IMG/VR virus record: IMGVR_UViG_3300031853_000031
Span: 4,579-68,578 of that record
Reading direction: 5' to 3' (one strand)
DNA from: a virus
Lineage: Duplodnaviria > Caudoviricetes
Length of the DNA stretch: 64,000 nt
Shown: positions 7,200-38,164 of the stretch, in pieces
Layout of the letters: each line of letters starts with the position of its first letter
Position numbering within the stretch: position 1 is the first letter of the stretch
The notes under the pieces: generated by a model
Databases searched by the model: none
Told to the model about the DNA's origin: nothing
Seen by the model: only the letters and a program-made list of their open reading frames with translations
Position numbers and translations under genes: made by a program

Positions 7200-7565
7200 A
7201 TGGGTTTAGTTAATATGAAATGCCCTAATTGTGGAGCGGAGTTGAAGATCGATAAGGATAGGGAAAATGTTTACTGCGAGTATTGCGGTTCTCATGTCTA
7301 TTCTCTAATCAAGACAAAAATCGTAGAAGAACATGTTACTAGGGATGAAACTCAGATAAAGAAAATGGAGATAGAAAAACAAGAACGGGAGAAAATGGAG
7401 AAGTACACAGCCCCATTTCTTACCGGTGATCTCGGCGCAATGCTAATCCTTTTTGGGATACTAGGGGAGTATTCTAATTGGTCTCTATTCACAAAAATAA
7501 TATGTATGATACTAGGCGTTGGCTTACTAATCCTAGCACTGATATTATATTTGAAAAAGAAATAA
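7200..7565 (+). CDS. Zinc-ribbon membrane protein (moron or superinfection-exclusion candidate)
   Basis: CPNCG...CEYCG ribbon; two C-terminal hydrophobic helices; RBS AAAGGAGG. Confidence 0.75.
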   Translation: MGLVNMKCPNCGAELKIDKDRENVYCEYCGSHVYSLIKTKIVEEHVTRDETQIKKMEIEKQEREKMEKYTAPFLTGDLGAMLILFGILGEYSNWSLFTKIICMILGVGLLILALILYLKKK

Positions 7566-7599
7566 TTTTTCGCAAAATCTACAGCGCTTATAATGAAAG

Positions 7600-7806
7600 G
7601 AGGTAGACCGCAAAAGATAAGACGGCATTAGTCATATCTATATACATGTCTATTTCACATCTAAAAGGGAAGTGATGTAATACCAAGCACCTCAAAGGTG
7701 GAAGGGTTGCAGTTTTCGACCAATCGTTCAATGAACGTAATGCGGAAGAGCTGTCCGGAACTGGAGTGTAAGTTGTTTTGGTGGAGCAGCTTCCTCTTTT
7801 CTTTTT
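7600..7806 (+). ncRNA. Putative structured ncRNA 3 (about 200 nt)
   Basis: Downstream of promoter 7571; SD-like AAAGGAGG with no following start codon; hairpins CACCT/AGGTG, GGTTG/CGACC, CGTTC/GAACG and GAAGAGCTG/CAGCTTC; T-run at the end. Confidence 0.5.
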
Positions 7807-7884
7807 GCCTGAACGAAGTGAAGACAAGCGAGCATCGCAAAATTTACACTCCTTATAGTAGAAAGATTAAGGAGGTATATTACC

Positions 7885-8073
7885 ATGAAAAAAGCTATAA
7901 CGATTATATTAAGTGTCATATTCGTATTAATGATTTGTGTTTTTGGAATGACTATTTTTAGCTTTATGGCTATTAATAGAGCGAGTGACGAAATCACAAC
8001 TACCATTGAGCGAATTGAAAACGAAAATGAAAAAGTCGATTTAGATTTAGAAAACTTGGTAAATGAATTCTGA
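7885..8073 (+). CDS. Small N-terminal TM protein
   Basis: Own promoter (7836), RBS AAGGAGG and downstream hairpin repeat. Confidence 0.75.
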   Translation: MKKAITIILSVIFVLMICVFGMTIFSFMAINRASDEITTTIERIENENEKVDLDLENLVNEF

Positions 8074-8178
8074 TTTTTGTCCTGAGCAAGACTTTAAACT
8101 GCTCATATTTTTTTCGCAAAATTTACAACTCCTATAATGAAAGAAGGAACTATAGATTTATTATAGGAGGACAAAACA

Positions 8179-8376
8179 ATGTTAAGAACATTAAATAATA
8201 TAGATGTAACAGAAATTGTTTGGAAACTATTAAAAGAGGTTTTCACCTTTGTAGTAATCTTTTGCTGCGTATGGGTAGCAGTAAAGGTGTCTACATTGGT
8301 AGACTTCAAAGTGTTTGCGTTAGTAATGTTAGGAATTATTTATGTGTTAATGTGTAAATTATCTAAAGATTCGTAG
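8179..8376 (+). CDS. Small two-TM protein
   Basis: Own promoter (8115); RBS AGGAGG. Confidence 0.75.
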   Translation: MLRTLNNIDVTEIVWKLLKEVFTFVVIFCCVWVAVKVSTLVDFKVFALVMLGIIYVLMCKLSKDS

Positions 8377-8510
8377 TTCCTCTTTCAAATCCTGAGCAAG
8401 ATTTAAAACTGCTCATTTTCTTTTTGCCATGATGGGGGATCGAATAAGGCACGCAGGTGACGTTATCTAATTGTAAACTTTCACTTATCAAACTATAAGG
8501 AGGTTTCACA

Positions 8511-8717
8511 ATGATAGCTTTTAGAAAAGGTCACATGCCAGTGTCTGTCGCCGCTAAAATATTCGGTAAGGATGCGAGTTGGGTTAGAGCCGGTATAACG
8601 GAAGGTTGGCTACCCATCGGCATCGTAACAGGTCAGGGTAAGAGGTGTAACTATTATATTTCACCAAAGAAGGTCTATGAGCTTACAGGTTACTTATGGG
8701 AGGGTGAGGAGATATGA
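8511..8717 (+). CDS. HTH DNA-binding protein (Xis-like)
   Basis: PVSVAAKIFGKDASWVRAG HTH; YYISPKK wing; RBS AAGGAGG. Confidence 0.7.
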   Translation: MIAFRKGHMPVSVAAKIFGKDASWVRAGITEGWLPIGIVTGQGKRCNYYISPKKVYELTGYLWEGEEI

Positions 8718-9097
8718 GTACGGTAATAAGAAACGAAGTATCCAAGTCCAACCCCTACTATCTCCCAAAGCACCGTTATCTGGAGCTTAAGCACTTCTGC
8801 CTGCAGTATCCTGATTGGAGAAAGGAATACGGAGCTATTATATTTGAGAAAGATGATGACTTTGACCCGACCGGCAAGAAGGCTGTAAGGCTTAAGATGC
8901 TGACGGATAGGATGGCTATGGTGGAAGAGACTGCTAAAGAGGTAGATCCAGTATTAGCAGAGTATCTCTTTTTTGCTGTAACGGGAGATAAGTCCTATAC
9001 ATACCTTAGAACAGCTATGAATATACCCTGTGGCAAGAATCTATACTACGACCTTTACAGGAAGTTCTGGTGGCTACTTAGTAAGAAACGGGAGTAG
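8714..9097 (+). CDS. RinA/ArpU-like transcriptional regulator
   Basis: ELKHFCLQYPDW; C-terminal HTH-like SYTYL...IPCGKNLYYDLYRKFWWLL. Confidence 0.55.
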   Translation: MSTVIRNEVSKSNPYYLPKHRYLELKHFCLQYPDWRKEYGAIIFEKDDDFDPTGKKAVRLKMLTDRMAMVEETAKEVDPVLAEYLFFAVTGDKSYTYLRTAMNIPCGKNLYYDLYRKFWWLLSKKRE

Positions 9098-9157
9098 ACG
9101 CAAGAAAAGCAGTGGTTATAATGAACCACTTAACTTGTTAAAAGAAAGGAGAATATT

Positions 9158-9367
9158 ATGAGCAAGTTAAAAAGAGAGACGTTAATGACATTAGTTGATG
9201 AGATAGGAGCGTATAATGATGCGGTATTGAAACTCTTCAAATGCATGGAAGAGGAAAAGATCGGCAAAGATAAACCACTGCTCCTACTCAAACAGTTGGA
9301 GGTCAGTGTACACGGTCTCAACCTTAACGAAGCCGTATCCAAAGTTTTGGACGAATTAAGTGAGTAA
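9158..9367 (+). CDS. Hypothetical early protein
   Basis: Promoter 9099; RBS GAAAGGAG; GAAA-loop hairpin follows. Confidence 0.7.
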   Translation: MSKLKRETLMTLVDEIGAYNDAVLKLFKCMEEEKIGKDKPLLLLKQLEVSVHGLNLNEAVSKVLDELSE

Positions 9368-9475
9368 ACTTATAAGGGCTCTGCCAGAAATGGCATCCCT
9401 TATAAACTTTTCGCAAAAATTACACCTCTTATAATAGAATCAAGAGGAATATTTTATTATAGGAGGTATGTTATC

Positions 9476-9691
9476 ATGATTAAATATTATATTACACTGG
9501 CTGTAGCAGGTATTTGTAACGCTATGGGCATTCTGATTGGAATGTTCTGTAGATTTCTTACCAATAACGGGATTAATATCCCTGAGGTAGTAACCATGCA
9601 GAATGTGTCCAAGGCATGTTTCCTGGTGTTCATTATCATGTTGGTCATTATGAATATTATGTTAATTATCGAAAGAAAACACAATAAGTAA
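9476..9691 (+). CDS. Small two-TM protein
   Basis: Promoter 9412; RBS AGGAGG; hairpin repeat at 9703. Confidence 0.75.
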   Translation: MIKYYITLAVAGICNAMGILIGMFCRFLTNNGINIPEVVTMQNVSKACFLVFIIMLVIMNIMLIIERKHNK

Positions 9692-9771
9692 ACTCTGATC
9701 AAGTCCTGAGCAAGACTTTAAACTGCTCATTATTTTTTTTTCGCAATAATTACATTCCTTATAATGAAGGA

Positions 9772-10215
9772 ATAATGTAAGGTTTGAGAGACCAACCTTA
9801 AAGATGGATTAAGCCATTGATAAATGGTAGCGTAGCCGTATCGCTAGGCTTGCTTAAATATCCTGGGCGTTAGGTCATTATTTCTACAAAATTATGTAGA
9901 CAAGTTATCACACGGACACGTGGTGGTGGCTACCTAATAATCGTTGATGAAGGGTTATTAGAGTGACGCAGATGATAATCGTAAGTCGGGCAGGCAATAA
10001 ACTGAAAAGGTGTTATTGTTTAAACTACAGATTTTGGGAACAGATATTATGTATGGCTGTTACGATAGTTAGGTGATCGAAAGTGAGCATGAACTCTTAT
10101 GAGGTGAGAAACCTGAACTGTGTGGCTATAAATCGAGCCATTGACGCCAGTATCTCTGAAGGCTGGTGGGCAGCGTTTGATGCGTGCGGTCCTAAGCATA
10201 GTATTTATTTTTTTT
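9772..10215 (+). ncRNA. Putative large structured ncRNA 4 (about 440 nt)
   Basis: Downstream of promoter 9742; no ORF of 60 aa or more; many stems (TAAGGTT/AACCTTA, GTAGCC/GGCTAC, TCTACA/TGTAGA, CTAATAAT/GTTATTAG, GGCAATAA/TTATTGTT, TGGCT/AGCCA, GCCAG/CTGGT); shares a module with ncRNA 1; ends at a T-run. Confidence 0.7.
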
Positions 10216-10235
10216 CTTAGAAAGGAGGTGAAATC

Positions 10236-10505
10236 GTGTTAACTAATATTATATTTTTGGCTGTTGGAGTTTTTGTAACGGTGTGGGCTTTTATCATACT
10301 AGACAGACTTACCGGCATTAGGAACAAACCCGTAGGTGAGCTTCAGGTGGATACAGAAAAGGAGATAGTCCAGTTAGTTTTCTATTCTACTCAGGACCTG
10401 CATCTCTCTATCCATGATAAGACCAGAGTGACCTTTGACGTGGTCCATAAGAGTCTGGATTTTAAGATCCCGGAAGAGTTCACGCAAGGAAAACAGAGCC
10501 TATAA
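10236..10505 (+). CDS. N-terminal TM hypothetical protein
   Basis: RBS AAAGGAGG; GTG start. Confidence 0.7.
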   Translation: MLTNIIFLAVGVFVTVWAFIILDRLTGIRNKPVGELQVDTEKEIVQLVFYSTQDLHLSIHDKTRVTFDVVHKSLDFKIPEEFTQGKQSL

Positions 10506-10547
10506 TGAAGGTGTTGTTAAGCATTATCCAAAGAAAGGAGTTATATC

Positions 10548-10997
10548 ATGGATAAGATTGCTGAGAATCACGAAGAACTTATTGAGAAGTTGCAGGCGCA
10601 TTTGCTTAAGCTGGATCCGGGTGATCCGCAGTATGGTAAGTTGCAAGCACGGTTGGATGCCATGATGAGGCAACGGAGTACAGACTTTAGAAACGAGCTT
10701 GACGCTATTGAGAACAACGAGCGTCTTGAGTTCGATCGCTGGAAAGCTGAGAAGGAAGCAGAAGAGAAAGCTGCTCAGAGAAAGGCTGACCAGGAGAAAA
10801 CCGAGAAGGAGTATGAGATCAACAAGGTCAAGAACAGGAATGATAAAGTCAGGAATGTTGTTGAATTCTTAAAGACTGGCTTCACCGTTTGCGTACCTGC
10901 CGCGTTAACCTGGGTGTTGGCAAAGAAGGAGATGGATCCTGTCGAACCGATCAATGTTAGACAAAGGATTTGGAATCTGATTCCAAAGATTAAGTAA
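10548..10997 (+). CDS. Charged coiled-coil protein with C-terminal hydrophobic segment
   Basis: Promoter 10483; RBS GAAAGGAG. Confidence 0.75.
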   Translation: MDKIAENHEELIEKLQAHLLKLDPGDPQYGKLQARLDAMMRQRSTDFRNELDAIENNERLEFDRWKAEKEAEEKAAQRKADQEKTEKEYEINKVKNRNDKVRNVVEFLKTGFTVCVPAALTWVLAKKEMDPVEPINVRQRIWNLIPKIK

Positions 10998-11125
10998 CTA
11001 TTGGTAATTGCATGAAAACACACTTTATAGCCTCTGTCAGAAATGACAGGGGTTATATTTTTTTCGCAAAAATGACAGCTGTTATAGTAGGAACCTATGG
11101 AATATTATTAATGGAGGTATTTAAT

Positions 11126-11371
11126 ATGAAGGTATACGTGTTAGTAAGCAAGTATAATGAGAACGACAAGCCGAGGTTTACAACTGATGTATTTCAGTCT
11201 TACGGAGAAGCTAATGACGCGGCGTTTGAGCGGATTAATAAAATAATCGGAGAGGATTATGTGTTTGATCGTGAAGCGTCGACAACAAGAGTGAAAATCG
11301 TAAGAAAAGTAGATTCAGGTTGGCTTGGTAGGGTTACTCACAGGTTTGTAATCACGGAAAACGAACTCTAA
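11126..11371 (+). CDS. Hypothetical early protein
   Basis: Promoter 11065; RBS GGAGG precedes ATG 11126, so the track start at 11012 would run through the terminator and promoter. Confidence 0.7.
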   Translation: MKVYVLVSKYNENDKPRFTTDVFQSYGEANDAAFERINKIIGEDYVFDREASTTRVKIVRKVDSGWLGRVTHRFVITENEL

Positions 11372-11467
11372 ACCTGTTCCTAGTCCTGAGCAAGACTTTA
11401 AACTGCTCATTATATTTTTTTCAATAATTACAGAGGCTATAATAGAAAAGCAAAGGAGGTAACAATT

Positions 11468-11680
11468 ATGAACCTAAAGTCGGAAGTAGCTTTGTACGAT
11501 TCCATGGTTGAAACTGAAGATTTGATTGAAAATATTCAAGGGAGGATTTATGGTTTTACAACAATCCCCCTTGAGGAAAGAGATGAGCTTTCAAGGAAAC
11601 TGTATGAGATTCGTATGAAGTTAGTAGATTATTCTAATGCATTAGGTGAGTCGTTAGTTATTATGGAAGCTTTTGATTAA
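11468..11680 (+). CDS. Acidic helical hypothetical protein
   Basis: Degenerate promoter 11420; RBS AAAGGAGG. Confidence 0.7.
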   Translation: MNLKSEVALYDSMVETEDLIENIQGRIYGFTTIPLEERDELSRKLYEIRMKLVDYSNALGESLVIMEAFD

Positions 11681-11729
11681 GGTAATAGTCCTGAGCAAGA
11701 CTTTAAACTGCTCATTATATTTTTCGCTT

Positions 11730-12035
11730 ATGACTTACAAAATCTACAAATGTGACCATTCTGTGTATTCTACATGTACATTATATTTTCATAAAGGTAA
11801 AGGACTAGCCATCATCCAGCAACGCTTTAACAAGAGGCTTAAGGTAACGTTCTGGTCGTCTGTTGACAAGGATTTAGCTGCAGAGATCGCTTATCATGAG
11901 AAGTTCTATGAATATTTCGTTGCTGAAGCAGGCTTCGCTAATGATGGATTATATCCTACCAAGACTATTAGACAGGTTATGTGGGCTCTTAAGATGAAAC
12001 CACTAAAGAAACATCCTTGGGAGACTCGTTGGTGA
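11730..12035 (+). CDS. Hypothetical protein
   Basis: First in-frame ATG after the hairpin repeat; no clear RBS or promoter. Confidence 0.5.
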   Translation: MTYKIYKCDHSVYSTCTLYFHKGKGLAIIQQRFNKRLKVTFWSSVDKDLAAEIAYHEKFYEYFVAEAGFANDGLYPTKTIRQVMWALKMKPLKKHPWETRW

Positions 12036-12100
12036 GTTCGCAAGAATAACAAAGGCTATAATGAAACCTGTTGGTGAGTTGAAGAAAGGAGTACATGTAA

Positions 12101-12172
12101 ATGGAAATGTTGGCGGTTTTCATGATCGCTTTGGGAATTTATATTCTCTATAAAGAGCATACAAAAACCTGA
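12101..12172 (+). CDS. 23-aa hydrophobic peptide MEMLAVFMIALGIYILYKEHTKT (not in ORF track)
   Basis: Own promoter 12039; RBS GAAAGGAG; downstream hairpin and T-run. Confidence 0.6.
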   Translation: MEMLAVFMIALGIYILYKEHTKT

Positions 12173-12286
12173 AGCAAATCATGAATAGGACTAAAGGAGG
12201 CTTTACAGTCTCCTTTCTTTTTCGCAAGAATAACACCTCCTATAATAGGTACAAGTTGATGTACATATTAAGAAAGGAGAACCATT

Positions 12287-12409
12287 ATGGTAAGTATTTT
12301 TGCGGGAGTTGTATTAGGTATCGCTTTAGTAGCGATGATACCGGCAGCAGAAGCCGTAAGTACAGAATTCCAGAAAGGAGAAATCCTTCTGAAGTACAAT
12401 CACGAGTAA
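12287..12409 (+). CDS. 40-aa hydrophobic peptide MVSIFAGVVLGIALVAMIPAAEAV... (not in ORF track)
   Basis: Own promoter 12223; RBS GAAAGGAG; GAAA terminator at 12414. Better supported than track ORF 12181-12447. Confidence 0.65.
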   Translation: MVSIFAGVVLGIALVAMIPAAEAVSTEFQKGEILLKYNHE

Positions 12410-12522
12410 ACGATAAGGAGCTTTGTAGAAATTACAAGGCTCCTTAGTTCTTCCGCAAAAATAACATCTCATATAATGAAGCGTATAGTGTGCTTCGTTA
12501 TATTTTAAAGGAGGATTTTATT

Positions 12523-12762
12523 ATGAAGAAATTAATATTCAAGCTGTCTATGTTAGCTGGAGCAAGCACCGCAGCTGGATGGGGTGGCTATTTTTGGTCT
12601 ATGAAAAACTTCAAGAACGGACATCTTAAAGAAGGCGTCCTGATTGGAACGATCACAGCCATTATAGCTACCGTCCTATCTGTTTGGGGCGGACAGAGAG
12701 CAATAGAGTGGACGAGTGAAGCATTAATAAACAACTCCAAAAAGGAGGAAGCAAGCGCTTAA
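12523..12762 (+). CDS. Small two-TM protein
   Basis: Promoter 12454; RBS AAAGGAGG precedes ATG 12523. Confidence 0.7.
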   Translation: MKKLIFKLSMLAGASTAAGWGGYFWSMKNFKNGHLKEGVLIGTITAIIATVLSVWGGQRAIEWTSEALINNSKKEEASA

Positions 12763-12845
12763 AACCAAGAAGAGGATTAGTAGAAATTACTAGTCCTCTT
12801 AGGTTTTTGCAAGACTTTGCGAGAAGCAGAAAGGAGTGTTGAAAA

Positions 12846-13058
12846 GTGGATCGCATTATTATTAAGTCAAAGCTCTTTAGATGGGTGTTAAGCAAGGTCA
12901 TCAAGAGAGCCATTAACAAGTCGTGTGGAGTAGACTCGGGGTTTACTCTGCATAGCTTTAACTTAGGGCATGACGATGGGGTAACCAAGATTACAGCCTG
13001 TTTCACCATTGAGGCGAGTGATGAAGACATTGTTAAGTTGTTTAAGGAGGAAGCTTAG
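12846..13058 (+). CDS. Hypothetical protein
   Basis: RBS GAAAGGAG; GTG start. Confidence 0.6.
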   Translation: MDRIIIKSKLFRWVLSKVIKRAINKSCGVDSGFTLHSFNLGHDDGVTKITACFTIEASDEDIVKLFKEEA

Positions 13059-13062
13059 AATA

Positions 13063-13889: not shown

Positions 13890-13939
13890 CGCAACAAAAA
13901 CATCTCCTATAATAGGTCGAATGAAAGGAGGACCAAGAT

Positions 13940-15789: not shown

Positions 15790-15971
15790 ATAGACAAGGT
15801 TTAAAGCCTTACTATCCTCGTTATTGGCCTGACTGGTTTAGTTACCACTATGCTTGTTGGGCCAATAATCATCGGGGATGGCAAAAGGCAAAGAAGAAAG
15901 AACGACGCATGGCTAAGAGGAGGCTTAAGCGGGAATTAAGAAAGGAGATAGAGAATGAACGTATATTTTGA
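15786..15971 (+). CDS. Small basic hypothetical protein
   Basis: Coupled ORF; aromatic N-terminus and K/R-rich C-terminus. Confidence 0.55.
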   Translation: MNRQGLKPYYPRYWPDWFSYHYACWANNHRGWQKAKKKERRMAKRRLKRELRKEIENERIF

Positions 15972-16605
15972 TACGGAATTTACAGGGCTTGTGCCTAACA
16001 CTACGCTGATCAGTATTGGTATGGTAGCGGAAACCGGTGAGAAGTTCTACGCCGAGTTTACCGATTATGATAAGGATTTGGTAACAGACTGGATTCAGAA
16101 AAACGTTGTTGATAAACTTGTGCTGAAACCAAACGAATCAATAATTACTAAAGACTGTTGGATGTTTTCCGGTTCGACAAATTATATTTGGAACAGGTTA
16201 CTTATTTGGTTCGAAAAAATCAGTGGAGCACAGTATGAAACCTTTCAGGATAACGCAAAAGCGTATATCCACCCTGAGCATCTAGGAGAACAAATTCAGC
16301 TAGTTTCAGACGTCTGCCATTACGACATGTACCTGCTTCAAAACCAGGTATTTGGCGGAGCTTTTAATATGCCGGTTAACATCAACCCGGTCTGCTATGA
16401 CATTTGTCAGGATATATGTGCTAGAGAAGTAGCTGGAGACGATTTAAAATGGTACCCCAACATGAACGGTATGGCAGATGCTTTCTATGTGTCAAGAGAG
16501 ATGTTCTGTAAGAAAGTAGCGGGCGATCTTCCTGAAGGTAAGAGGCACAACGCGCTTTATGACGCTAAAGTAATCAAAATGATATATGAAGGGATGAGAA
16601 AATAA
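15955..16605 (+). CDS. DEDDh 3'-5' exo(ribo)nuclease
   Basis: YFDTEFTGL (ExoI), SDVCHYD (ExoII), HNALYDAK (ExoIII). Confidence 0.85.
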   Translation: MNVYFDTEFTGLVPNTTLISIGMVAETGEKFYAEFTDYDKDLVTDWIQKNVVDKLVLKPNESIITKDCWMFSGSTNYIWNRLLIWFEKISGAQYETFQDNAKAYIHPEHLGEQIQLVSDVCHYDMYLLQNQVFGGAFNMPVNINPVCYDICQDICAREVAGDDLKWYPNMNGMADAFYVSREMFCKKVAGDLPEGKRHNALYDAKVIKMIYEGMRK

Positions 16606-17396: not shown

Positions 17397-17398
17397 AA

Positions 17399-21239: not shown

Positions 21240-22073
21240 ATGAACCTTGTAAAAATATTAAAGCCTTTAGAAAAAACCGCTTACCAGTTGCTTAGATCTG
21301 TTAAGGCTAACAGAACTACGCTCTACGCCATTGGAGCGACAGTTGGAGTGGTTGGGACGGCTGCGGCTAGTGCTAAGGCGGCTGTTAAGACCAAGGAGTA
21401 TCAGGAGGAGTATGCTGATGCGAGCTTTGCTGAGAAGGCGAAATTTATTGGTGGACTTTGGGTGATGCCGGTAGTAGTAGGAGGCGTTACTATCTTCTGT
21501 ATCTGGAGAGGACATAAGATCCACCTTGAGAAGGAAGCAAGTCTGGCTGCTATGAGTGCTTTCTGGAAGACCAAGTACGATGAACTTGATAAGAAAATCT
21601 CTGAGAAACTCTCTGAAGAAGAGTACAAAGAGGTTAAGGATGAGATATTCAAAGAGAACGTAGAGAAGGCAGCTAATGAACGGGGAGTGAATCTTGCAGC
21701 TCTGTCTAAAGGCCAGTTCTGGGTGTACGACGCTATAACAGGGCAGTTCATGAAGGTGACTGCAGACCAGATGACCTGGGCTACATATGCTCTTAATAAG
21801 CGTTTCATGGAAGGACAGGTCGTGCAGTATAACTGGTTCTTAGGACTGCTTGGAGGTAGACCGAGTGAACTTGCTAAAGACGTTGGTTGGGATCCTAACA
21901 ACGAGACGTTCTTTGAAATGTTGGACTACAATAATGGGTTCGGCATCGCACCGTGGCTTGATGTAGATGCTGACCATCACGCCGACATCAATATGGATCC
22001 TGTTAACTCTGAGGGCTTGCCTGTAGCGCAACTGTTCTACAAGTATGACCCCTTCTATCTATATGAAAAATGA
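21240..22073 (+). CDS. Paralogue family member 1 (DUF6353-like)
   Basis: AIGATVGVVGTAAASAKAA hydrophobic helix, second TM, C-terminal YNWFLGLLG...VGW; family name from recall. Confidence 0.6.
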   Translation: MNLVKILKPLEKTAYQLLRSVKANRTTLYAIGATVGVVGTAAASAKAAVKTKEYQEEYADASFAEKAKFIGGLWVMPVVVGGVTIFCIWRGHKIHLEKEASLAAMSAFWKTKYDELDKKISEKLSEEEYKEVKDEIFKENVEKAANERGVNLAALSKGQFWVYDAITGQFMKVTADQMTWATYALNKRFMEGQVVQYNWFLGLLGGRPSELAKDVGWDPNNETFFEMLDYNNGFGIAPWLDVDADHHADINMDPVNSEGLPVAQLFYKYDPFYLYEK

Positions 22074-22855: not shown

Positions 22856-23686
22856 TTGGAGGCTGTTATGAAACTACCGATTAAAGCTGTTAAGACAGCG
22901 CTGGTTAAGTATACGAAGATGATCCCTAAACTGATGGTCAAGGAGAGTCCTACTATACTTGCTGGGATAGGTGTTGTAGGCGTAGTTAGTGTTGCTGTAA
23001 CGACGCATACGGCGACCAAGAAGGCTGTGGAAAAGATGGAGGAAGTACGCAGCGAGGATGATTACGTGGAGCCCGAAACAAAGGTTGATGCTGCTATTGA
23101 GGAGGTAAAGGAGACATGGCAGTATTATATTCCTGTTGGAGCTATTATGGTGGTTGCTATCGTAGCTATCGTTCAGGGGAATAGGATAAGTTTGAGGCGT
23201 ATATCCATTCTTACTGATGCTTACAGGATGAGCGAGAAACTGAGGAAAGAGTATCAGACCAAGGTTAAGGAGGTCCTTGGAGAGAATAAGGAAGCCAAAA
23301 TCCAGAATGAGATAGCTCAGGACAGGCTTGATGAAGACCCTGTTGATGAGAAGTATGTCTATGCGACAGGGCATGGTAATAGTTTGATCAAGGACTGCTT
23401 TTCTGGAAGATACTTCTATAGCAATCCGGAGTTCATAAGACAAGTTAAGAATCAGTTGGATAGAAAACTCGTTATTGAAGATTATATTTCTGTTAACGAG
23501 CTTTTCTATAAACTAGATTTGGAGATGTTAGATGCTGCAGCGGACTATGGTTGGAGGGTAGACCACTGTGACATGAAGGATCTTACAGACATTAGACTAA
23601 TACCAGGTACAGCTTCTGATGGAAGGCCGTGTCATGTGCTGACGTATGAAGTTGAGCTGGGTTTTGATGTGTATGAGGATAGTTAG
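22856..23686 (+). CDS. Paralogue family member 2 (DUF6353-like); start probably ATG 22868
   Basis: SPTILAGIGVVGVV, YIPVGAI, ISVNELFYKLD...YGW. Confidence 0.7.
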   Translation: MEAVMKLPIKAVKTALVKYTKMIPKLMVKESPTILAGIGVVGVVSVAVTTHTATKKAVEKMEEVRSEDDYVEPETKVDAAIEEVKETWQYYIPVGAIMVVAIVAIVQGNRISLRRISILTDAYRMSEKLRKEYQTKVKEVLGENKEAKIQNEIAQDRLDEDPVDEKYVYATGHGNSLIKDCFSGRYFYSNPEFIRQVKNQLDRKLVIEDYISVNELFYKLDLEMLDAAADYGWRVDHCDMKDLTDIRLIPGTASDGRPCHVLTYEVELGFDVYEDS

Positions 23687-25041: not shown

Positions 25042-25324
25042 TCATTACAAAAAACAGTGCTCAATTGAGTGCATCGAGGCTATGGAAATAGCTTTTGGGG
25101 CTGAAGGAGTGGTCAATTTCTGCCTTTGTAACGCCTTTAAGTACTTATGGAGGCATACAAACAAGGCTGGATACGAGGATTTAGAGAAGGCATCCTGGTA
25201 CGTTGACGCCGCAAGGGAGAAAATGCCCTTGATGGGTGATAAGAGAGGGCTTTATGAAGCTAAATTACTCTCTTTAAGTGAAGTTATCGCGACTTATGTA
25301 TTATATTTTGGAGGAAAATCATGA
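25004..25324 (+). CDS. DUF3310-like (SaV-like) protein
   Basis: INPDHY...ECIEAM...FCLCNAFKYLWR...KAGYEDLEKASWY. Confidence 0.8.
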   Translation: MGKLVGKDAINPDHYKKQCSIECIEAMEIAFGAEGVVNFCLCNAFKYLWRHTNKAGYEDLEKASWYVDAAREKMPLMGDKRGLYEAKLLSLSEVIATYVLYFGGKS

Positions 25325-26331
25325 AATTATTAAGCGTTGTTGCATCTAAAATGACAAATTCTATGGGTAAAGTTGGTTTAAAACTCACTAAGGCAGCTCC
25401 TGATATTCTCGTTGCTGCAGGTATTGGTGGACTTGTTGGAGCTACTGTTTGGCTGATTAAGAACGAGGAAAAGCGTAAGGAAATTCTCGAAGACTTTGCT
25501 GAAGAGAGAGAAAACATCGAGGCCGACAAGGAGATTTTAGAAGAGATGGCTGAATCTGGCAATACCGAGGCCGTAGAATGCCCTTCTGACGCACCAGAAG
25601 CCTCATATAGCGGTTTAGTGGTAAAATCCTATGTAGAGGTCGCTGGAAGGCTTGCAGGGCTGTATGCGGCTCCTGTGGCTTTATACGGGGTCTCTCTGGC
25701 TTGTATCTTAAAGAGCCATTATATTCTTAAAGGGAGAGTTGCAGGTCTTGCTGCTGCTTATGAGTGTCTGGACAGAGCCTATAAGAGGTACCGTGGGAAC
25801 GTCGTTGAGAGATATGGTGAAGAGGTCGACAAGGATATGGCTTACGGCAGAAAGAAGGAGACTATCATTGAGAGCCATCCAGATCCTGAGACAGGCGAGG
25901 AGATTGTTGAGACCAGCGAGAGAATGACTTACAACGTTCCTCTTGGTGGATCTGAGTTCGGTAGATGGTTTGAGCAGGGTGGTAGTTGGGAGTTTGAGAA
26001 GAACAATCCCATTTACAATATGACTTACGTTGTTGGAGTACAGGCTCAGCTTGATAACCTGCTGCACGCAAGAGGGCACGTATTCCTTAACGAGGCATAT
26101 GACGCTTTGGGATTTGAAAGAACGCCTGAGGGAGCTGTTGTAGGTTGGATCCTGGGAGCCGGGGACGATTGTATTGACTTCGGTATCAACGACAAGGTGG
26201 TTTGGGTTAAGGACCGCTGGCATGGCGACGGAGACGAGCTTACTGTTGTAGGAAGAGACGATTATGACGGCTTCAGACAGGGATTCTGGCTTGATTTCAA
26301 CCACGATGGAGTTATATTTGACAAGATTTGA
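25321..26331 (+). CDS. Paralogue family member 3 (DUF6353-like)
   Basis: APDILVAAGIGGLV, LYAAPVAL, RVAGLAAAY, GHVFLNEAYDALG...VGW. Confidence 0.75.
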   Translation: MKLLSVVASKMTNSMGKVGLKLTKAAPDILVAAGIGGLVGATVWLIKNEEKRKEILEDFAEERENIEADKEILEEMAESGNTEAVECPSDAPEASYSGLVVKSYVEVAGRLAGLYAAPVALYGVSLACILKSHYILKGRVAGLAAAYECLDRAYKRYRGNVVERYGEEVDKDMAYGRKKETIIESHPDPETGEEIVETSERMTYNVPLGGSEFGRWFEQGGSWEFEKNNPIYNMTYVVGVQAQLDNLLHARGHVFLNEAYDALGFERTPEGAVVGWILGAGDDCIDFGINDKVVWVKDRWHGDGDELTVVGRDDYDGFRQGFWLDFNHDGVIFDKI

Positions 26332-32039: not shown

Positions 32040-32055
32040 AAGGAGAATTATATTT

Positions 32056-32580: not shown

Positions 32581-33779
32581 TGGGAATTGAGCTGGATGCT
32601 CATCAGATAGAAGCTGTTAACAAACTTGGTAATGGTAAGATACTTTGTGGCGTAGTAGGTTCAGGTAAGAGTCGTTGTGCTCTTGCCTACTACTTCTGCC
32701 GTGAGTGTCAGGGCAAGGTACGGCTTAATGGTAAGGGTCGTTATGTGAAACCTAAGAAGCCTAAGCCATTATATATTATCACTACAGCAAGGAAGAGGGA
32801 TACATTCGAGTGGGAAAAGGAATGTCTCCCTTTTCTTCTTAGTGACGAAGTTACCGTAGACTCATGGAATAACATCAAGAAGTATGTAGATGTTAGAGAT
32901 GCGTTCTTTATATTTGATGAGCAAAGAGTTGTTGGTTATGGAGCATGGTCTAAGTCTTTTATAAAGATAGCTAGGAACAATCGCTGGATTCTTCTTAGTG
33001 GAACACCCGGTGATACTTGGATGGACTATATGTCTGTCTTCATAGCTAACGGATTCTTTAAACACAAGACTGATTTCGTTAATCAACATGTGGTCTTTAA
33101 GAAGTTCTCACGTTACCCAAACCAAATCGACTATTATATTTTTGAGGATCGGTTAGAGAAGTTAAGAGACCAGATACTGGTGGATATTGAATACACCAAG
33201 CCTGCCACCTCACACGAACAGGTTGTCCAAGTAAGTTATGATAGGACACTCTATAAAACGGTTCGTAGCAGACGGTGGAATATCTATAAGGACGAGCCGG
33301 TTCAGAACATTTCAGAACTCTGCTACTTGCTTAGAAGAATTATCAACACTGACGAGAGTAGAGAGAAAGCAGTTATAGAAATTGTTCGTGAGAAGAAGAA
33401 AGTAATTATATTTTACAATTTCAATTGCGAATTGGACATGCTTAAAGGGATTAAGTATGGGAATGGCTTTTCTGTTGCAGAATGGAATAGTTATAAGCAT
33501 GAGCCTATTCCTAAGACAGACAAGTGGGTGTACTTGGTTCAGTACGCTGCCGGTGCTGAAGGATGGAATTGTATAGAAACAGACACTATTATATTTTTCT
33601 CACAGAACTACTCATACAAAATTATGCAACAAGCTGCTGGTCGTATAGACCGACGCAACACACCCTTTAAAGACTTGTATTTTTATCACTTGAAATCAAG
33701 AGCTCCGATTGACAAGGCTATCTCTGTAGCCCTTAAAGAGAAGCGTAATTTTAACGAGTCTCGTTTCATCGGAAAGTAG
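32580..33779 (+). CDS. SF2 (SNF2/DEAD-like) helicase
   Basis: VGSGKS, FDEQR, LSGTPG, GAEGWN and QAAGRIDR motifs. Confidence 0.9.
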   Translation: MGIELDAHQIEAVNKLGNGKILCGVVGSGKSRCALAYYFCRECQGKVRLNGKGRYVKPKKPKPLYIITTARKRDTFEWEKECLPFLLSDEVTVDSWNNIKKYVDVRDAFFIFDEQRVVGYGAWSKSFIKIARNNRWILLSGTPGDTWMDYMSVFIANGFFKHKTDFVNQHVVFKKFSRYPNQIDYYIFEDRLEKLRDQILVDIEYTKPATSHEQVVQVSYDRTLYKTVRSRRWNIYKDEPVQNISELCYLLRRIINTDESREKAVIEIVREKKKVIIFYNFNCELDMLKGIKYGNGFSVAEWNSYKHEPIPKTDKWVYLVQYAAGAEGWNCIETDTIIFFSQNYSYKIMQQAAGRIDRRNTPFKDLYFYHLKSRAPIDKAISVALKEKRNFNESRFIGK

Positions 33780-33871
33780 CCTTTCGCAAAAAAAACAGAC
33801 GGTATAATAGAAGAGAAGGGAAGAAATATGCCATTTTTGATATTATTTTGGCATTTTCTTATATTTTTTCG

Positions 33872-34162
33872 ATGAAAGAGTCAAGATTTCAAATGAAACT
33901 TATAGAAGATCTGAACGCTCTATTTCCCGGTTGTATGGTAATGAAACTAGATGCTGGGTACCGTCAGGGCATACCAGATCTTCTTATTTTGTTTAAAGAC
34001 AAATGGGCTGTGTTGGAGTGTAAGGCTAGTGCGACAGCACATCACCAACCTAATCAAGACTATTATATTTCTAGGATGGATGATATGTCCTTCGCTAGAT
34101 TTATCTATCCTGAGAACAAGAAGGAGGTCTTAGATGAACTTCAACGAGCATTTCAAACTTAA
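33872..34162 (+). CDS. VRR-NUC nuclease
   Basis: ESRFQ..LI, GIPDLL, AVLECKA, PNQDYY; promoter 33785 upstream; start uncertain. Confidence 0.8.
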   Translation: MKESRFQMKLIEDLNALFPGCMVMKLDAGYRQGIPDLLILFKDKWAVLECKASATAHHQPNQDYYISRMDDMSFARFIYPENKKEVLDELQRAFQT

Positions 34163-34691
34163 AGGTTCTCATTCTTTTTTGGGTGCCTCTAAGTATCATT
34201 GGATACGATACGACGAGGATAAGTTCAGGAAAGCATGGAGTAACCATGAAGCAGCCTTACGAGGCACTGCTGATCACGAGTTTGCAGCCTTGTGTATTGC
34301 ACGTGGTCAGAAGTTACCTCGTAGTAAACAAACCCTTAACATGTACGTTAACGACGCAATAGGCTTTGGGCTTAAGCCCGAGGTCACGTTGCGGTATTCT
34401 GATAACGCCTTCGCGACAGCTGATGCTATTGATTTCAAAGAGCGTAAGAAGTTGTTGCAAATCTTTGATTTGAAGACTGGTGTCGTTCCGGCACATATGG
34501 AGCAGCTGCTTGTGTACGCTGCTTATTTTTGTTTGGAATACAAGATGCGTCCTTCTGAATTCAAAACAGAACTTCGTATCTATCAGAACAGTGACGTCGT
34601 AATTTATGAACCCGAAGTAGATGAGATTGTCCCCATAATGGACAAGATCATTCACTTTAACAAGATCATCGAAGAGAGGAAATACCAATGA
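34134..34691 (+). CDS. PD-(D/E)xK (Cas4/RecB-like) exonuclease
   Basis: RGTADH, ATADAI, IFDLKTG and EQLLVYA. Confidence 0.75.
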   Translation: MNFNEHFKLKGSHSFLGASKYHWIRYDEDKFRKAWSNHEAALRGTADHEFAALCIARGQKLPRSKQTLNMYVNDAIGFGLKPEVTLRYSDNAFATADAIDFKERKKLLQIFDLKTGVVPAHMEQLLVYAAYFCLEYKMRPSEFKTELRIYQNSDVVIYEPEVDEIVPIMDKIIHFNKIIEERKYQ

Positions 34692-37615
34692 GTATTATTA
34701 TATTCTCAGATGAGTTGATGCATTATGGTACTCCTCATTCGGGAGCAACCCCACACTCAGGACGCTATCCTTGGGGATCTGGTAAGAATCCACAAAGACA
34801 TAAAAGTATTCTTCAGAGAGCTGGCGAACTTAAAGAAGCTGGATTTACAGCTAGTGAGGTAAGAGCAGTTATGGGTACCACGGATAGCGAAATAGCTGCG
34901 GCTAAAGCTAGAGAGAACAAATGGGGTGATGCTGATGCTCTTCACGAACAGAACAAGGCAACGCTTGCTAAGATTAAGAAGCTTGAAGAAGAAGGTAAGA
35001 CATCGACACAGATTAAAGAAGAAACCGGGTTATCCAGTGGTGATGTTAGAGCTTTAAAGTCTGTCGTAAAGAAGCGTCAGCTTCAACTCGATGTTACAGA
35101 GGCTAGAAGACTTCGAGATGAGGAACACCTTGGGCCCACTGAAATTGCTCGACGTATGAACACTGGTGAGTCTACGATTCGTAACTATCTTAAAGACTCG
35201 TATAAAGAGAAAGTGGATCGTCAAGATGACATCATCAATGTTTTAAAGGCCGAGGTCGATAAAAAGAAATACATTGACGTTGGTAAAGGTGTTGAACTTC
35301 AGCTCAATATTACAAGGGATAAACTTGACAAAACTGTAAAAGAACTTAAACAGCAAGGGTATACTATACACCATTTATCCGTTCCACAAGCTACTAATCC
35401 TGTACACAAAACATCGATCCAGGTATTAACCAAAGATGATGTACCGTGGAAAGAAGTTAATGCTAATCGTGAAAAAGTAGCAACCATATTGGATGTGTAT
35501 TCGGATGGTGGTGAGATTAAGAAGAAAGCCCCACCCGTCAGTATTGACTCATCACGTATCATGATTCGATACAACGAAGATGGTGGTGTAGATAAGGACG
35601 GTGTGTTGGAGCTTAGGCCAAGCGCTAAAGACTTATCGATGGGTGGAAACCGGTATTCTCAAGTCCGAGTCGCAGTTGATGACACCCACTATCTTAAAGG
35701 CATGGCGATGTATGCTGATGAGAAGGACTTCCCACCAGGTATCGATATTATATTTAACACTAATAAGCATAGGGGCACACCTATGATCGGAGAAGATGCT
35801 GATCATGAAGTTCTTAAGCGATTGAAGACTGATAAAGTCACCGGTGATGTTGATGTCGATAATCCTTTCGGTGCTATTGTAAAACAAAAGACGTATGTTG
35901 GAGACGATGGAAAGGAACATCAGTCCCCCATCAACATCGTTAACGAAGATGAAGACTGGGAGAAGTGGTCAAAGAATCTTTCTGCACAGTTCTTATCTAA
36001 ACAATATTTAGCTACTGCTAAGAAACAATTAGACCTCACATATAGAGATAAAGTGAAAGAGTTTGAAGAGATTCAGGCTCTTACCAATCCCGTTCTCAAA
36101 GAAAAACTGATGCGGTCTTTTGCTGATGATTGCGATTCAGCAGCAGTTCATCTCAAGGCTAAGGCGTTTGATCGGCAAGCGAGTCATGTTATTCTTCCTA
36201 TGCCTTGGAATAAACCTAATGAGATCTATGCACCGAATTATGAACAGGGTGAGGAATTGGCTCTTGTACGATATCCACACGGTGGAACGTTCGAGATTGC
36301 TATCGTTACTGTTAACAATAACAATCCTAAAGCTAGAAGATTAATAGGTAACGCCGCACACGCTGTGGGTATTAATCCAGAAGTAGCACAACAGTTATCT
36401 GGTGCAGACTTTGATGGTGATACTGTAGTTTGTATTCCTACTAGAGGTAATAAGATTAAGGCAACGAAAGCTATTAAGGAGTTAATAGACTTCGAGCCTA
36501 AAGAAAAGTATCCTGCTTACGAAGGTATGCCTCGTGTCGGTCCTGATACTGGATTCCATAAACAGGCTGAGATGGGTCGAGTTACAAATCTTATCACGGA
36601 TATGACCATTAAGCACGCCACTACTGAAGAAATTATTAAAGCTACTAAACATTCCATGGTAGTAATAGACGCTGAAAAGCATAATCTCGATTGGAGGCGT
36701 AGCTATGAAGAGAATCAGATAGAGGCGTTGAAGCGTAAATATCAGAACACCGCTTCTAACGGACGTCCGGGTGGATCATCGACTATCATCTCTCGTGCAA
36801 AGTCCCCCTACATGGCTCCTGAAATAGACACCAACCGGCCCTATAAGATCAATCCTGAAACCGGGGAGAAGGAGTTCCAGTTTACAAACAAGACCCATAA
36901 CAAAAGAAATAAAGACGGGACCTATAGCGACAAAGAGATACCCAACACCTATAAATCCACCAAGATGTACTGGGCTAAGGACGCCTATGAACTAACGTCT
37001 GATGGGAAGGGTGGTACTAAGATGGAACAAGCCTATGCTGACTATGCTAATAGTCTTAAAGCATTAGGTGATAGGGCCAGACTGGAGTCGGTCCATATAG
37101 AGAGTATCCCCTATTCAAAAGAAGCCCGTCGTGTTTACAAAGCTGAAGTAGAATCGTTACAGGCTAAACTTAATGCTGCTATAGCCCACTCTCCTAAAGA
37201 ACGTAAGGCTCAACTTGTAGCGTCTAAAGTGATTGCTGCTAAAAAAGAGGCCAATCCAGACATGACTAAAGAAGAGGAGAAGAAGATGCGGTCTATAGCT
37301 ATAGCAGACGCACGTTCTCATCTTATAGGTACACAGAGTAAGCCTCGTATTACAGAGATTACAGATCGTGAATGGGAAGCAATTCAGTCTGGTGCTGTTA
37401 CTAAGTCCATGCTTAGAGAGATTATTGATAACTCTGATCAAGACATGATTAGACAAAGAGCAACACCAAGAACTAATAGTAAGACATTAACACCTGCACA
37501 GAGGGCTAGTATACACGCCATACTTACTAACCCCAACAACAAAGTAACACAAGCTGAATTAGCTAAACGTTACAATGTTTCAGTATCTACGATCAATAAG
37601 ATTGCTCGTGAATAA
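34688..37615 (+). CDS. Single-chain two-barrel RNA polymerase (YonO / RdRP-like) with HTHs and N-terminal HxG tag
   Basis: SGADFDGD at 36398-36421; LVRYP upstream; QVRV...YLKGM second-barrel motif; HTHs GPTEIARRMNTGESTIRNYL and TQAELAKRYNVSVSTINKI; starts SDELMHYG. Confidence 0.85.
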   Translation: MSIIIFSDELMHYGTPHSGATPHSGRYPWGSGKNPQRHKSILQRAGELKEAGFTASEVRAVMGTTDSEIAAAKARENKWGDADALHEQNKATLAKIKKLEEEGKTSTQIKEETGLSSGDVRALKSVVKKRQLQLDVTEARRLRDEEHLGPTEIARRMNTGESTIRNYLKDSYKEKVDRQDDIINVLKAEVDKKKYIDVGKGVELQLNITRDKLDKTVKELKQQGYTIHHLSVPQATNPVHKTSIQVLTKDDVPWKEVNANREKVATILDVYSDGGEIKKKAPPVSIDSSRIMIRYNEDGGVDKDGVLELRPSAKDLSMGGNRYSQVRVAVDDTHYLKGMAMYADEKDFPPGIDIIFNTNKHRGTPMIGEDADHEVLKRLKTDKVTGDVDVDNPFGAIVKQKTYVGDDGKEHQSPINIVNEDEDWEKWSKNLSAQFLSKQYLATAKKQLDLTYRDKVKEFEEIQALTNPVLKEKLMRSFADDCDSAAVHLKAKAFDRQASHVILPMPWNKPNEIYAPNYEQGEELALVRYPHGGTFEIAIVTVNNNNPKARRLIGNAAHAVGINPEVAQQLSGADFDGDTVVCIPTRGNKIKATKAIKELIDFEPKEKYPAYEGMPRVGPDTGFHKQAEMGRVTNLITDMTIKHATTEEIIKATKHSMVVIDAEKHNLDWRRSYEENQIEALKRKYQNTASNGRPGGSSTIISRAKSPYMAPEIDTNRPYKINPETGEKEFQFTNKTHNKRNKDGTYSDKEIPNTYKSTKMYWAKDAYELTSDGKGGTKMEQAYADYANSLKALGDRARLESVHIESIPYSKEARRVYKAEVESLQAKLNAAIAHSPKERKAQLVASKVIAAKKEANPDMTKEEEKKMRSIAIADARSHLIGTQSKPRITEITDREWEAIQSGAVTKSMLREIIDNSDQDMIRQRATPRTNSKTLTPAQRASIHAILTNPNNKVTQAELAKRYNVSVSTINKIARE

Positions 37616-37623
37616 AGAAAGGA

Positions 37624-37866
37624 ATGAAAGTAATGATTGCAATGTTATCAACTTCTGATAATCCTTTCAATCCTTTTACAAACTTTGAAGAATGGTACGA
37701 GTATGATGAGCGAAATAATTACCATTCCACTTCGTATTTAGGTCGAATTGCAAGACTTTCTCCGAATTTAACAAATAAAGAATACGAAGATGAAGTTGAA
37801 AGAGCGATTGATGAGATTATTAAGTACAATTTAACAGGAAATTACATTAAGGTGACACAGCCTTGA
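37624..37866 (+). CDS. Small acidic hypothetical protein next to the RNAP
   Basis: RBS GAAAGGA; MLSTSDNPFNPF... Confidence 0.65.
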   Translation: MKVMIAMLSTSDNPFNPFTNFEEWYEYDERNNYHSTSYLGRIARLSPNLTNKEYEDEVERAIDEIIKYNLTGNYIKVTQP

Positions 37867-37867
37867 T

Positions 37868-37950
37868 AGGGGGGAGGGGGTACCCCGAATCCCGCCCCCT
37901 CCCTGCATCGCGGCGTCCTTATATTTTTCTCCGGGGGTTAAAACCCCAAT
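37868..37950. other. Probable cos / genome-end region
   Basis: GC-rich island between the RNAP and terS/HNH; GGGAGGGGG/CCCCCTCCC inverted repeat, then GCATCG-CGGCGTCCT (37911-37919). Confidence 0.5.
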
Positions 37951-37957
37951 TATATTT

Positions 37958-38127
37958 TCAGAAACATTCCACCAGGGCATGGGGACTAACTAGTTAATTG
38001 CTATACATTGTTCGTTCGTTATAGGTTTTTCTTTGAGCTCTTTTCTAAAAATCGGTGTCGAAATTTGTGTCAAATGTCCTCCAAAAAGTGATTACAAAGT
38101 TCTCGTGCCTTGTTGGAATGTTTCTGA
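37958..38127 (+). ncRNA. Structured late-operon leader or ncRNA
   Basis: Perfect 14-bp inverted repeat TCAGAAACATTCCA/TGGAATGTTTCTGA, extended by about 15 bp with several G:U pairs. Confidence 0.45.
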
Positions 38128-38164
38128 CTTATATTCTATACCACACTAAACTAATCAAAAGGAG

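Follow-up and report, generated by a model that had tools for sequence, protein, structure and literature searches.

A strand-locked, strongly selected array of TTATATT words in a temperate siphophage and its possible role in transcription

The heptamer TTATATT forms a one-sided array in the DNA of a temperate siphophage (Caudoviricetes; IMG/VR record IMGVR_UViG_3300031853_000031), of which we have analysed a window of 64,000 bases, corresponding to bases 4579-68578 of a phage genome of 68,578 bases. Exact counting gives 81 copies on the + strand of this window and a single copy on the - strand, at 63683, while for the whole genome the counts are 87 and 1. The array is a strongly selected directional signal, and this signal is probably tied to transcription.

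We hypothesise that the word is an oriented -10-like element (N-A-W-A-W-T) that provides entry for rightward transcription, works by its density and is probably read by the phage polymerase, a reading to which we give a probability of roughly one in three (about 0.35). We infer three of its parts, namely that transcription is the level of action, that the word is an RNA start and that a polymerase is the reader. The lineage to which the phage belongs and its polymerase-like gene have already been described (10.1101/842583; PMC4889955), and in the literature that we searched there is no account of the TTATATT word, or of a polar array, in this lineage.

Counts, layout and selection of the word

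Neither chance nor base composition is the cause of these numbers, as both the counts and the shuffles rule this out. In 100 dinucleotide shuffles of the window TTATATT occurred 15.7±3.65 times on the two strands together (maximum 27), compared to the 82 copies observed. For strand asymmetry it is far ahead of all other 7-mers, with AAAGGAG coming second (43/5, where a/b gives, here and below, the copies on + and the copies on -). The consensus is A-TTATATT-T/C with flat flanks, that is, 7-9 informative bases, and the word sits on the G-rich strand, the GC skew being +0.2 to +0.3 across the array.

The dense part of the array (Table 1) spans the early genes, the replication genes and the RNA polymerase gene and runs up to the genome end. 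The original prediction, made from the letters of the sequence, placed about 60 + strand copies at 7.5-38.1 kb and few on the reverse strand, which the exact count bears out with 69; it also took the word to be confined to this early and middle region, and although most copies do lie there, it had missed eight at 1043-6302. Its figure of about two copies for 38.2-64 kb was too low, as there are four on the + strand. Between 38136 and 58022, a stretch of 19.9 kb in the head-tail module, TTATATT is absent from both strands.

Within the open reading frames (ORFs) of the + strand the copies are distributed over the three frames as 18, 14 and 26 (58 of the 81 in the window), and a further four lie inside the integrase gene, so that about three quarters are intragenic, with about 13-19 intergenic copies besides. 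A peptide-level cause is ruled out by the use of three frames, of intergenic DNA and of the antisense strand of the integrase gene. Some copies stand between a Shine-Dalgarno sequence and its start codon, and several intergenic ones lie inside, or directly 3' of, terminator hairpins. Short gaps between copies are rare, with four of less than 100 nt where 13.4 are expected. As a separate observation on spacing, seven neighbouring pairs lie 357-359 nt apart (7545/7904, 11053/11410, 11781/12139, 12139/12498, 20469/20828, 22271/22628 and 23125/23482), a number of pairs well above that from random spacing and one not seen in the prophage of genome G001, a relative described below.

When synonymous codons were shuffled within the genes of the early region, 12.4±2.9 copies of TTATATT were retained (maximum 21), compared to 52 genic copies observed, while the reverse complement is depleted, with one observed against 6.5±2.2. 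Contexts whose amino acids are compatible with the word hold it in 52 of 73 cases (71%) in the early region, 7 of 23 in the distal tail-fibre/lysis block and none of 12 in the head-tail module. Because of this pattern of context availability and use, both the amino-acid sequence and the codon choice of the early region are seen to be bent toward the word, and in the head-tail genes neither is. With such a share of the usable contexts occupied over 26 kb of genes, the array plainly shows a nucleic-acid signal taking precedence over the choice between synonymous codons.

Conservation between phages leads to the same site-by-site picture. We compared the polymerase-fusion, helicase and RNA polymerase genes with those of contigs L004 and L006 (these and L005 are from relatives with polymerase homologues at 61% and 53% identity), taking every site of the window at which the residues of the relative still permit the word. 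At such orthologous contexts the word is kept in 11 of 11 cases in L004 and in 6 of 7 in L006, 17 of 18 in all, and the seventh L006 site reads CTATATT, which fits the consensus of L006 itself. In the gene for the large replication fusion, which has 12 words, the same codon position is used for six in L004 and for three in L006. Elsewhere identical residues use the same codon in only 21-32% of cases, meaning that synonymous sites are saturated, and since the word is kept despite this saturation, purifying selection acts on the nucleotide word itself. Thus the enrichment proposed by the original prediction persists under a codon-preserving shuffle and the motif is conserved in relatives, down to the same codon positions.

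All clear genes of the phage lie on the + strand with the sole exception of the tyrosine integrase. This gene has no TTATATT in its sense orientation, and four of its five compatible contexts hold the + strand word, which is antisense to it (P=0.0075, within-gene synonymous shuffle). The word therefore follows the strand of the genome and not the sense of the gene and, with selection at the nucleotide level, this supports a directional DNA signal, one of the three functions first suggested for it. Minus-strand genes in the loci of relatives are too few for the strand-lock comparison to be repeated there.

Another of these functions was that of RNA-protein sites. The transcribed word, UUAUAUU, might be a mark bound by an RNA-binding protein or an endoribonuclease that leads to fast decay or processing of early and middle RNAs; phage T4 RegB, for example, acts at GGAG. 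Such a mark would be consistent with a distribution that matches the temporal modules, the late head-tail RNAs being without the word, and with its presence on the transcribed sense strand in all frames. It is also consistent with a motif that is predicted to be slightly less paired than control positions (unpaired 0.54 vs 0.47), and with a phage that encodes an Rv2179c-like 3'-5' exoribonuclease or RNase H-like protein. However, an RNA mark accounts neither for the depletion of the reverse complement nor for the near-saturated antisense words in the integrase gene, unless read-through RNA matters there, and our search for a candidate sequence-specific RNase or RNA-binding protein in the phage found none. 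We consider an RNA-level role unlikely.

Relatives, word switching and the opposite strand

We surveyed 80 viral contigs and 80 genome loci that carry the polymerase gene. About 60 of these relatives carry the same polar ATATT-core word, among them gut Firmicutes prophages, an oral phage and a Streptomyces phage, and every carrier of the polar word encodes a QDE-1-like single-chain RNA polymerase. Where the genome records name a host, it belongs in most cases to the Lachnospiraceae or to other Clostridia. In about 30 loci no 7-mer is more polar than TTATATT (34/1, 33/1, 30/0 and 29/0 are examples), and in about 22 the leading polar word is (N)GATATT(T) (32/0 is an example). In L004, L005 and L006 the word stands at 22/3 and 12/1, or takes the relaxed form B-ATATT-T (ATATT 122/24), and the density of the word, which is 2-7 per kb, goes up to 7.6 per kb in L006. 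The core is also polar at higher GC content, with ATATT at 44/5 and CATATTC as the top 7-mer (14/0) in an oral phage contig of 54% GC, and with ATATT at 28/0 in the Streptomyces phage PherryCruz (61% GC), compared to 8.7±1.8 and 4.2 after codon shuffling.

The array is bounded and belongs to the early-to-polymerase block. Three temperate relatives repeat its layout, in which the words stand densely between the early genes and the polymerase gene, sparsely in the head-tail module and at moderate density in the distal tail-fibre/lysis genes. In the prophage of the 6.1-Mb isolate genome G001, which is of TTATATT type, the word is found at 45/0 over positions 314,206-343,765 with background on either side, and the late region holds five opposite-strand copies. 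In the prophage L144 of genome G002 the word is CCAAAAT, at 74/1 over 27 kb that begin with the first early genes and end shortly after the polymerase gene, followed by a sparse head-tail zone and then by nine copies in 3.7 kb of distal late genes; the opposite orientation of CCAAAAT returns in the flanking host DNA. Another relative, L091, has TCAAAAT at 16/0. Judged from these sequences, the word can change while the layout stays, and the exchange of TTATATT for CCAAAAT within the same architecture amounts to a natural experiment for finding the reader. The array marks a large and widespread lineage, comprising prophages of gut Lachnospiraceae and other Firmicutes, oral phages and Streptomyces phages, and the word is a simple marker for the early region and the orientation of such prophages in gut genomes.

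Other words were met in the survey. Lactococcus phage 1706 (contigs L002 and L003) has a longer polar word of low copy number, CTATAGTAGA (10/0), and Arthrobacter phage Mudcat (L010 and L011) has another, CTCTTGAAA (9/1); both look like ordinary phage promoters and may be such. L001, a relative of the polymerase fusion with 56% GC, is without the word. TACTGGT in L137 was considered as an analogue and rejected, as it belongs to a 15-base coding tandem repeat (TACTGGTRAC...) of about 19 units at L137 1-300.

The opposite strand is purged in the arrays of relatives as it is in the window, where the shuffle expects 6.5 copies and one is seen: PherryCruz has none against 4.2, G001 none in 29.5 kb and G002 one in 27 kb. 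This pattern recalls phage T7, whose 36 EcoP15I sites (CAGCAG) are all on one strand, which is usually read as avoidance of head-to-head sites. The T7 bias is alike in that an asymmetric word is kept on one strand in a phage whose genes all run one way, and escape from a Type III or Type ISP enzyme that cuts head-to-head sites only would explain a purged opposite strand, the recognition words of such enzymes being short, asymmetric and variable. It would not explain a 4- to 10-fold gain on the kept strand, 71% context saturation or conservation by codon position, and unlike the T7 sites TTATATT is enriched several-fold over a codon-preserving null and conserved site by site. In G001, moreover, the purge is confined to the array, with opposite-strand copies present in the late region. 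The enrichment brings restriction escape close to being refuted, and we give it very little credence.

The third function first suggested was that of stoperator-like repressor sites. The stoperators of Cluster A phages (L5 gp71 and the TipsytheTRex repressor; PMC9283540) are many asymmetric words along the direction of transcription whose orientation is essential and whose sequence varies between phages, and L5 gp71 gives a precedent for orientation-dependent action. By analogy, a phage DNA-binding protein sitting on the oriented TTATATT words would block or dampen rightward transcription of toxic early and lysis genes in the lysogen, or would switch the early genes off late in infection. The functional analogy stands in several respects: the words have one orientation and occur in temperate phages, they cover the early-to-polymerase block and part of the lysis side while sparing harmless structural genes, close spacing is rare as it would be for footprint sites, and words switch between relatives as they do between immunity groups. 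Copies in the integrase gene would also stop read-through entering the prophage from the left.

Membership of the stoperator class, on the other hand, does not stand. Cluster A stoperators are 13-mers, slightly over twenty per genome and mostly placed in short intergenic gaps (PMC9283540), whereas TTATATT has its 87 copies and 7-9 informative bases, lies for three quarters in ORFs and away from promoters and short intergenic gaps, and is common in host DNA, as in host genome G001, whose some 2,100 copies in both orientations would titrate a roadblock protein and let it block host genes. The opposite-strand purge is not predicted by such an array, and no repressor candidate that co-varies with the word was found. 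The ATATT core is kept from phages of Firmicutes to those of Actinobacteria at about 42% polymerase identity, including PherryCruz, whose annotation shows neither integrase nor repressor, and so wide a conservation speaks for a conserved machine and against an immunity repressor, a kind of protein that evolves fast. We regard a silencer array as quite unlikely.

Short polar words also guide enzymes that move along DNA. Chi sites, with which some phage genomes are loaded, and the KOPS and SRS words that guide FtsK and SpoIIIE are 5 to 8 bases long, act by density and orientation and vary between lineages, the known Chi and KOPS words being G-rich. TTATATT is similarly short, polar, over-represented and seemingly density-acting, and it could be a guide or brake for a DNA translocase such as host AddAB/RecBCD, the phage's RecB-like exonuclease and helicase, or the packaging or ejection machinery. 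The strand that bears it has its 3' terminus at the inferred right end, which is the active orientation for entry from that end, the density of the word is highest in the right 30 kb, and genes for a RecB/Cas4-like exonuclease, an annealing protein and a helicase adjoin the polymerase gene in all relatives. However, Chi, KOPS and SRS are over-represented and replication-skewed in their hosts, and TTATATT is neither in G001, where it counts 1046/1065 in 6.1 Mb and 58/51 in a 400-kb stretch whose GC skew is positive. With no enrichment and no replication-linked skew, a host word of Chi type or KOPS type is ruled out for this host, which carries a TTATATT-type prophage. The word is also AT-only and follows gene modules; PherryCruz has only two copies in its right 19 kb, and a second word in the late module (see below) fits expression classes better than a rule of distance from the end. 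A translocase signal appears to us slightly less likely than a silencer array.

Candidate readers and the transcription reading

Encoded by the last large gene before the genome end, the protein of 975 residues gives a full-length match to phrog_4291 (1035 bits), its GADFDGD motif (G572-A-D574-D576-G-D578) is invariant in 20 homologues, and a structural model (mean pLDDT 72) has QDE-1 as its top Foldseek match (E 1e-7), followed by the P23-45-family gp64 and plant RDR2. From this match, motif and fold we therefore take it to be a single-chain two-barrel RNA polymerase; it has helix-turn-helix modules at both ends. Sequence searches of the PDB with this protein and with the 1328-residue fusion gave no match. 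A single-chain RNA polymerase has been proposed for the lineage (10.1101/842583), of which this is the signature gene, and 250 deposited phages (of Arthrobacter, Gordonia, Streptomyces, Lactococcus and others) have it at their right physical end. The 975-residue polymerase is the candidate reader of the word. A related single-chain two-barrel enzyme, phi14:2 gp66, transcribes single-stranded DNA far better than duplex, and in the literature examined we found no promoter or template rule for the QDE-1-like phage polymerase family. The signature gene is an uncharacterised relative of the eukaryotic RNAi polymerases, for which the array offers a testable candidate rule.

Among gene families within 10 kb of the polymerase gene no convincing one tracks the trait: DUF6353 is weakly associated with it (7 of 18 relatives with the polar trait vs 0 of 11 without), and no protein is common to the two YCAAAAT phages alone.

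A replicative reader has also to be weighed. The T7 primase uses pentamer sites, and the word could by comparison be a site of lagging-strand priming, at which the fusion primase, or the QDE-1-like polymerase acting on single-stranded DNA, would start primers (pppAAUAU...), the + strand being the lagging-strand template of rightward forks or the displaced strand of a rolling circle. The strand lock regardless of gene sense, the position on the G-rich strand and the avoidance of close spacing are what such priming would lead one to expect, and as the words end in T and have a fixed flank preference, a primer would begin with A. The phage moreover has its own fusion of an SF3 helicase with an AEP primase and with PolB, orthologous to gp55 of phage 1706 (PMC4889955), and relatives of its polymerase favour single-stranded templates. 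Yet the whole genome needs replication and 20 kb of it are without a copy, and in three phages the sparse zone tracks gene modules. In PherryCruz the replication half is nearly empty, opposite-strand depletion is not required for priming, and the density reached in L006 is beyond any priming need. We hold priming to be about as improbable as the silencer array.

The mechanism is limited by five features of the array, namely a strand lock that ignores gene sense, near-saturated enrichment on one strand with a purged opposite strand, an arrangement by expression modules that recurs in relatives, the exchangeability of the word, and a core kept from phages of Firmicutes to those of Actinobacteria. 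Of the readings weighed we rank entry of transcription first, and its mechanism could be as follows. A-TTATATT-T/C would be a DNA element that acts on transcription of the + strand by number and polarity and not as a gene-by-gene switch, most likely as a minimal, AT-only and easily melted initiation site for the phage's QDE-1-like polymerase; a host polymerase redirected by a phage factor would be a less likely reader. Each copy would add to rightward transcription of the early and the middle genes, and where the DNA is circular or concatemeric this would extend into the promoter-poor late operon that begins just past the last three copies.

Positions 2 (A) and 6 (T) of the hexamer are essential in bacterial -10 elements, and both bases are found in TATATT, GATATT, CATATT and CAAAAT, each of which conforms to N-A-W-A-W-T. 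In two independent sets, one of 633 and one of 637 sites, T/T comes downstream of the word and is followed, at +4 to +7, by a stretch poor in T and rich in purines, whose position suggests that it lies where a start site would. A purge of the opposite strand would be expected if a copy starts something, such as antisense RNA, and copies at terminator hairpins are placed as restart sites would be, which suggests the same reading. That relatives of the polymerase prefer single-stranded DNA agrees with a requirement for an entry word that is AT-only and melted. We also counted in favour of transcription the strong selection at the nucleotide level, the layout in the three temperate relatives, which goes by module and not by position, and the three words before the first late gene together with the promoter-poor late region; the presence of a QDE-1-like polymerase in all carriers was counted for the polymerase as reader, and the promoter-like longer words of relatives without the dense word for a promoter.

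The form of the element was examined further. At the 81 sites of the window and in both larger sets the upstream side is flat, with no sigma-70 -35 box or TG extension at a fixed spacing. General polarity of N-A-W-A-W-T was not found, and only particular words are polar. That the word is an antisense TATAAT box (ATTATA reversed) is ruled out, since the complements of GATATT, CATATT and CAAAAT are not TATAAT; 6 of the 11 top promoter-like hits are of this antisense type, and the number with a -35 match is at chance level. An N4-type hairpin promoter is ruled out as well, the sites being no more structured than controls.

Short promoters, served by phage-specific machinery, are known for non-canonical phage polymerases, as in T4 late transcription (gp55), for the non-virion polymerases of phiKZ and AR9 and for N4 RNAP II with its single-strand-binding helper gp2. 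TTATATT is like these in being a very short AT-rich element of -10 type or near the start, with no -35, oriented with the genes and absent antisense, whereas they occur in tens of copies upstream of transcription units and TTATATT is saturating, mostly intragenic and unplaced with respect to gene starts. The two polymerases of two-barrel type in P23-45 use AT-rich and GC-rich promoter motifs (10.1101/2022.12.01.518664).

Several points weigh against transcription entry. A set of 69 promoters in 31 kb, three quarters of them intragenic and others placed between an ATG and the Shine-Dalgarno sequence before it, would be unlike any described promoter set. A word of 7-9 bases that occurs about 2,100 times in host genome G001 would need density, replicating DNA or a helper protein for its specificity. 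The array of PherryCruz lies in tail and lysis genes and its replication genes are nearly empty, and the dense polar word is absent from phage 1706 and from Mudcat, both of which have the polymerase. On the polymerase tree the classes of word are scattered, and the two YCAAAAT phages do not stand there as sisters, so that co-variation of word and polymerase does not emerge from these comparisons, all of them made at about 50% identity. Finally, the array region is already served by a promoter set of host type, TTCGCAA-N13-TATAAT.

A stronger version, which we think improbable though less so than an RNA mark, is density-coded transcription, in which the QDE-1-like polymerase enters at hundreds of 7-base -10-like words spread over the genes of its own genome. 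If this were true, the local word count would set RNA dosage and the late operon would be fed by upstream flow, the single-strand-binding and helicase neighbours might assist entry of the polymerase, and lineages would re-tune by switching the word (TTATATT, GATATT, CCAAAAT), with TCAAAAT as a second word for the late module.

Gene order, genome end and other repeats

Table 1. Positions in the window of the array, the main genes and the other repeat families
Feature	Position	Strand	Details
TTATATT, dense array	7545-38135	+	69 copies, 2.2 per kb, 0 on -
TTATATT, lower-density part	1043-6302	+	8 copies; accessory and lysis-side genes, integrase region
TTATATT in distal tail genes	58023-62346	+	4 copies: 58023, 61098, 61208, 62340
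Tyrosine integrase (PF00589)	5490-6680	-	4 + strand words: 5792, 6049, 6125, 6296
Early protein, phrog_11237, 127 residues	8714-9097	+	homologues of 39-42% identity in the prophages of G001 and G002
Rv2179c-like 3'-5' exoribonuclease or RNase H-like protein	15955-16605	+	among the early genes
DUF6353 paralogues (three)	21240-22073, 22856-23686, 25321-26331	+	early region
SF3 (D5-like) helicase/primase/polymerase fusion, 1328 residues	28053-32039	+	DUF5906, Pox_D5, phrog_4210
Single-chain two-barrel RNA polymerase, 975 residues	34688-37615	+	last large gene before genome end
Genome-end region	37866-38164	+	G-rich hairpin, conserved right-end sequence, putative cos cut near 37917, three words
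Head-tail module	from 38165	+	first late gene at 38165
Large terminase	43026-44759	+	within head-tail module
TCAAAAT(G/A), weaker polar word	41293-63953	+	14 copies on +, 0 on -, all three frames
TTCGCAA-N13-TATAAT, fixed-spacing promoter-like element	6893-12227 and 33783	+	at least 9 copies, T run 5'

The ends of the phage genome share a 127-base overlap and the assembly is therefore circular; the only public run with the full sequence is a bovine (cattle) gut metagenome, which may be its source, and no RNA run was listed among the public runs that contain it. The head-tail module includes a tape measure protein of 1920 residues, and the distal tail, accessory and lysis-side genes extend beyond the end of the window to about 5300. 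Past the lysis side follow the integrase gene, a long block of small early genes, the replication block and the 975-residue protein. The replication block comprises the helicase/primase/polymerase fusion, an annealing or single-strand-binding protein, a helicase, an endonuclease and a RecB/Cas4-like exonuclease.

At the right end of the genome a G-rich hairpin is followed by CTGCATCGC and about 10 further bases, a sequence that is conserved across relatives and common to Lactococcus phage 1706, Streptomyces and Arthrobacter phages and gut prophages. We aligned the physical ends of PherryCruz, Mudcat and 1706 with L144 and L006 by eye, the conserved sequence being located at 37866-37917 of the window, at 13220-13260 of L144, and in L009, L010/L011 and L002/L003. 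The beginning of the left end is conserved with these three phages too. Homology to the physical ends of the three phages places the cos cut near 37917, and the copies at 37919, 37950 and 38129 therefore lie in the first 220 nt of the linear genome. The original prediction had the last copies flank cos, and it is instead after the cut that all three are found, where they open the linear genome within 250 nt 5' of the first late gene. A hairpin at 37934-37947 is followed by one of these words. Neither sigma-70-like promoters nor terminators are in excess in the late 20 kb, while in the early region terminators are at twice their expected number.

The second polar word, TCAAAAT(G/A), occupies the late half of the window, where TTATATT is absent or sparse. 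Between 38.2 and 58 kb it occurs 11 times, compared to 3.75±1.6 in codon shuffles, its hexamer CAAAAT is polar at 15/1, and in 49 relatives TCAAAAT(G/A) is found downstream of the polymerase gene at 234/30. TTCGCAA-N13-TATAAT forms a repeat family of its own within the region of the TTATATT array.

Three temperate relatives conserve the early protein at 8714-9097 where the polar domain begins. Among named Atlas clusters, those closest to it, which we treat as leads only, are DUF1492, DUF722 and Phage_antitermQ at 0.92-0.93, and as a lead it may be a candidate regulator of the RinA/ArpU/Q-like type.

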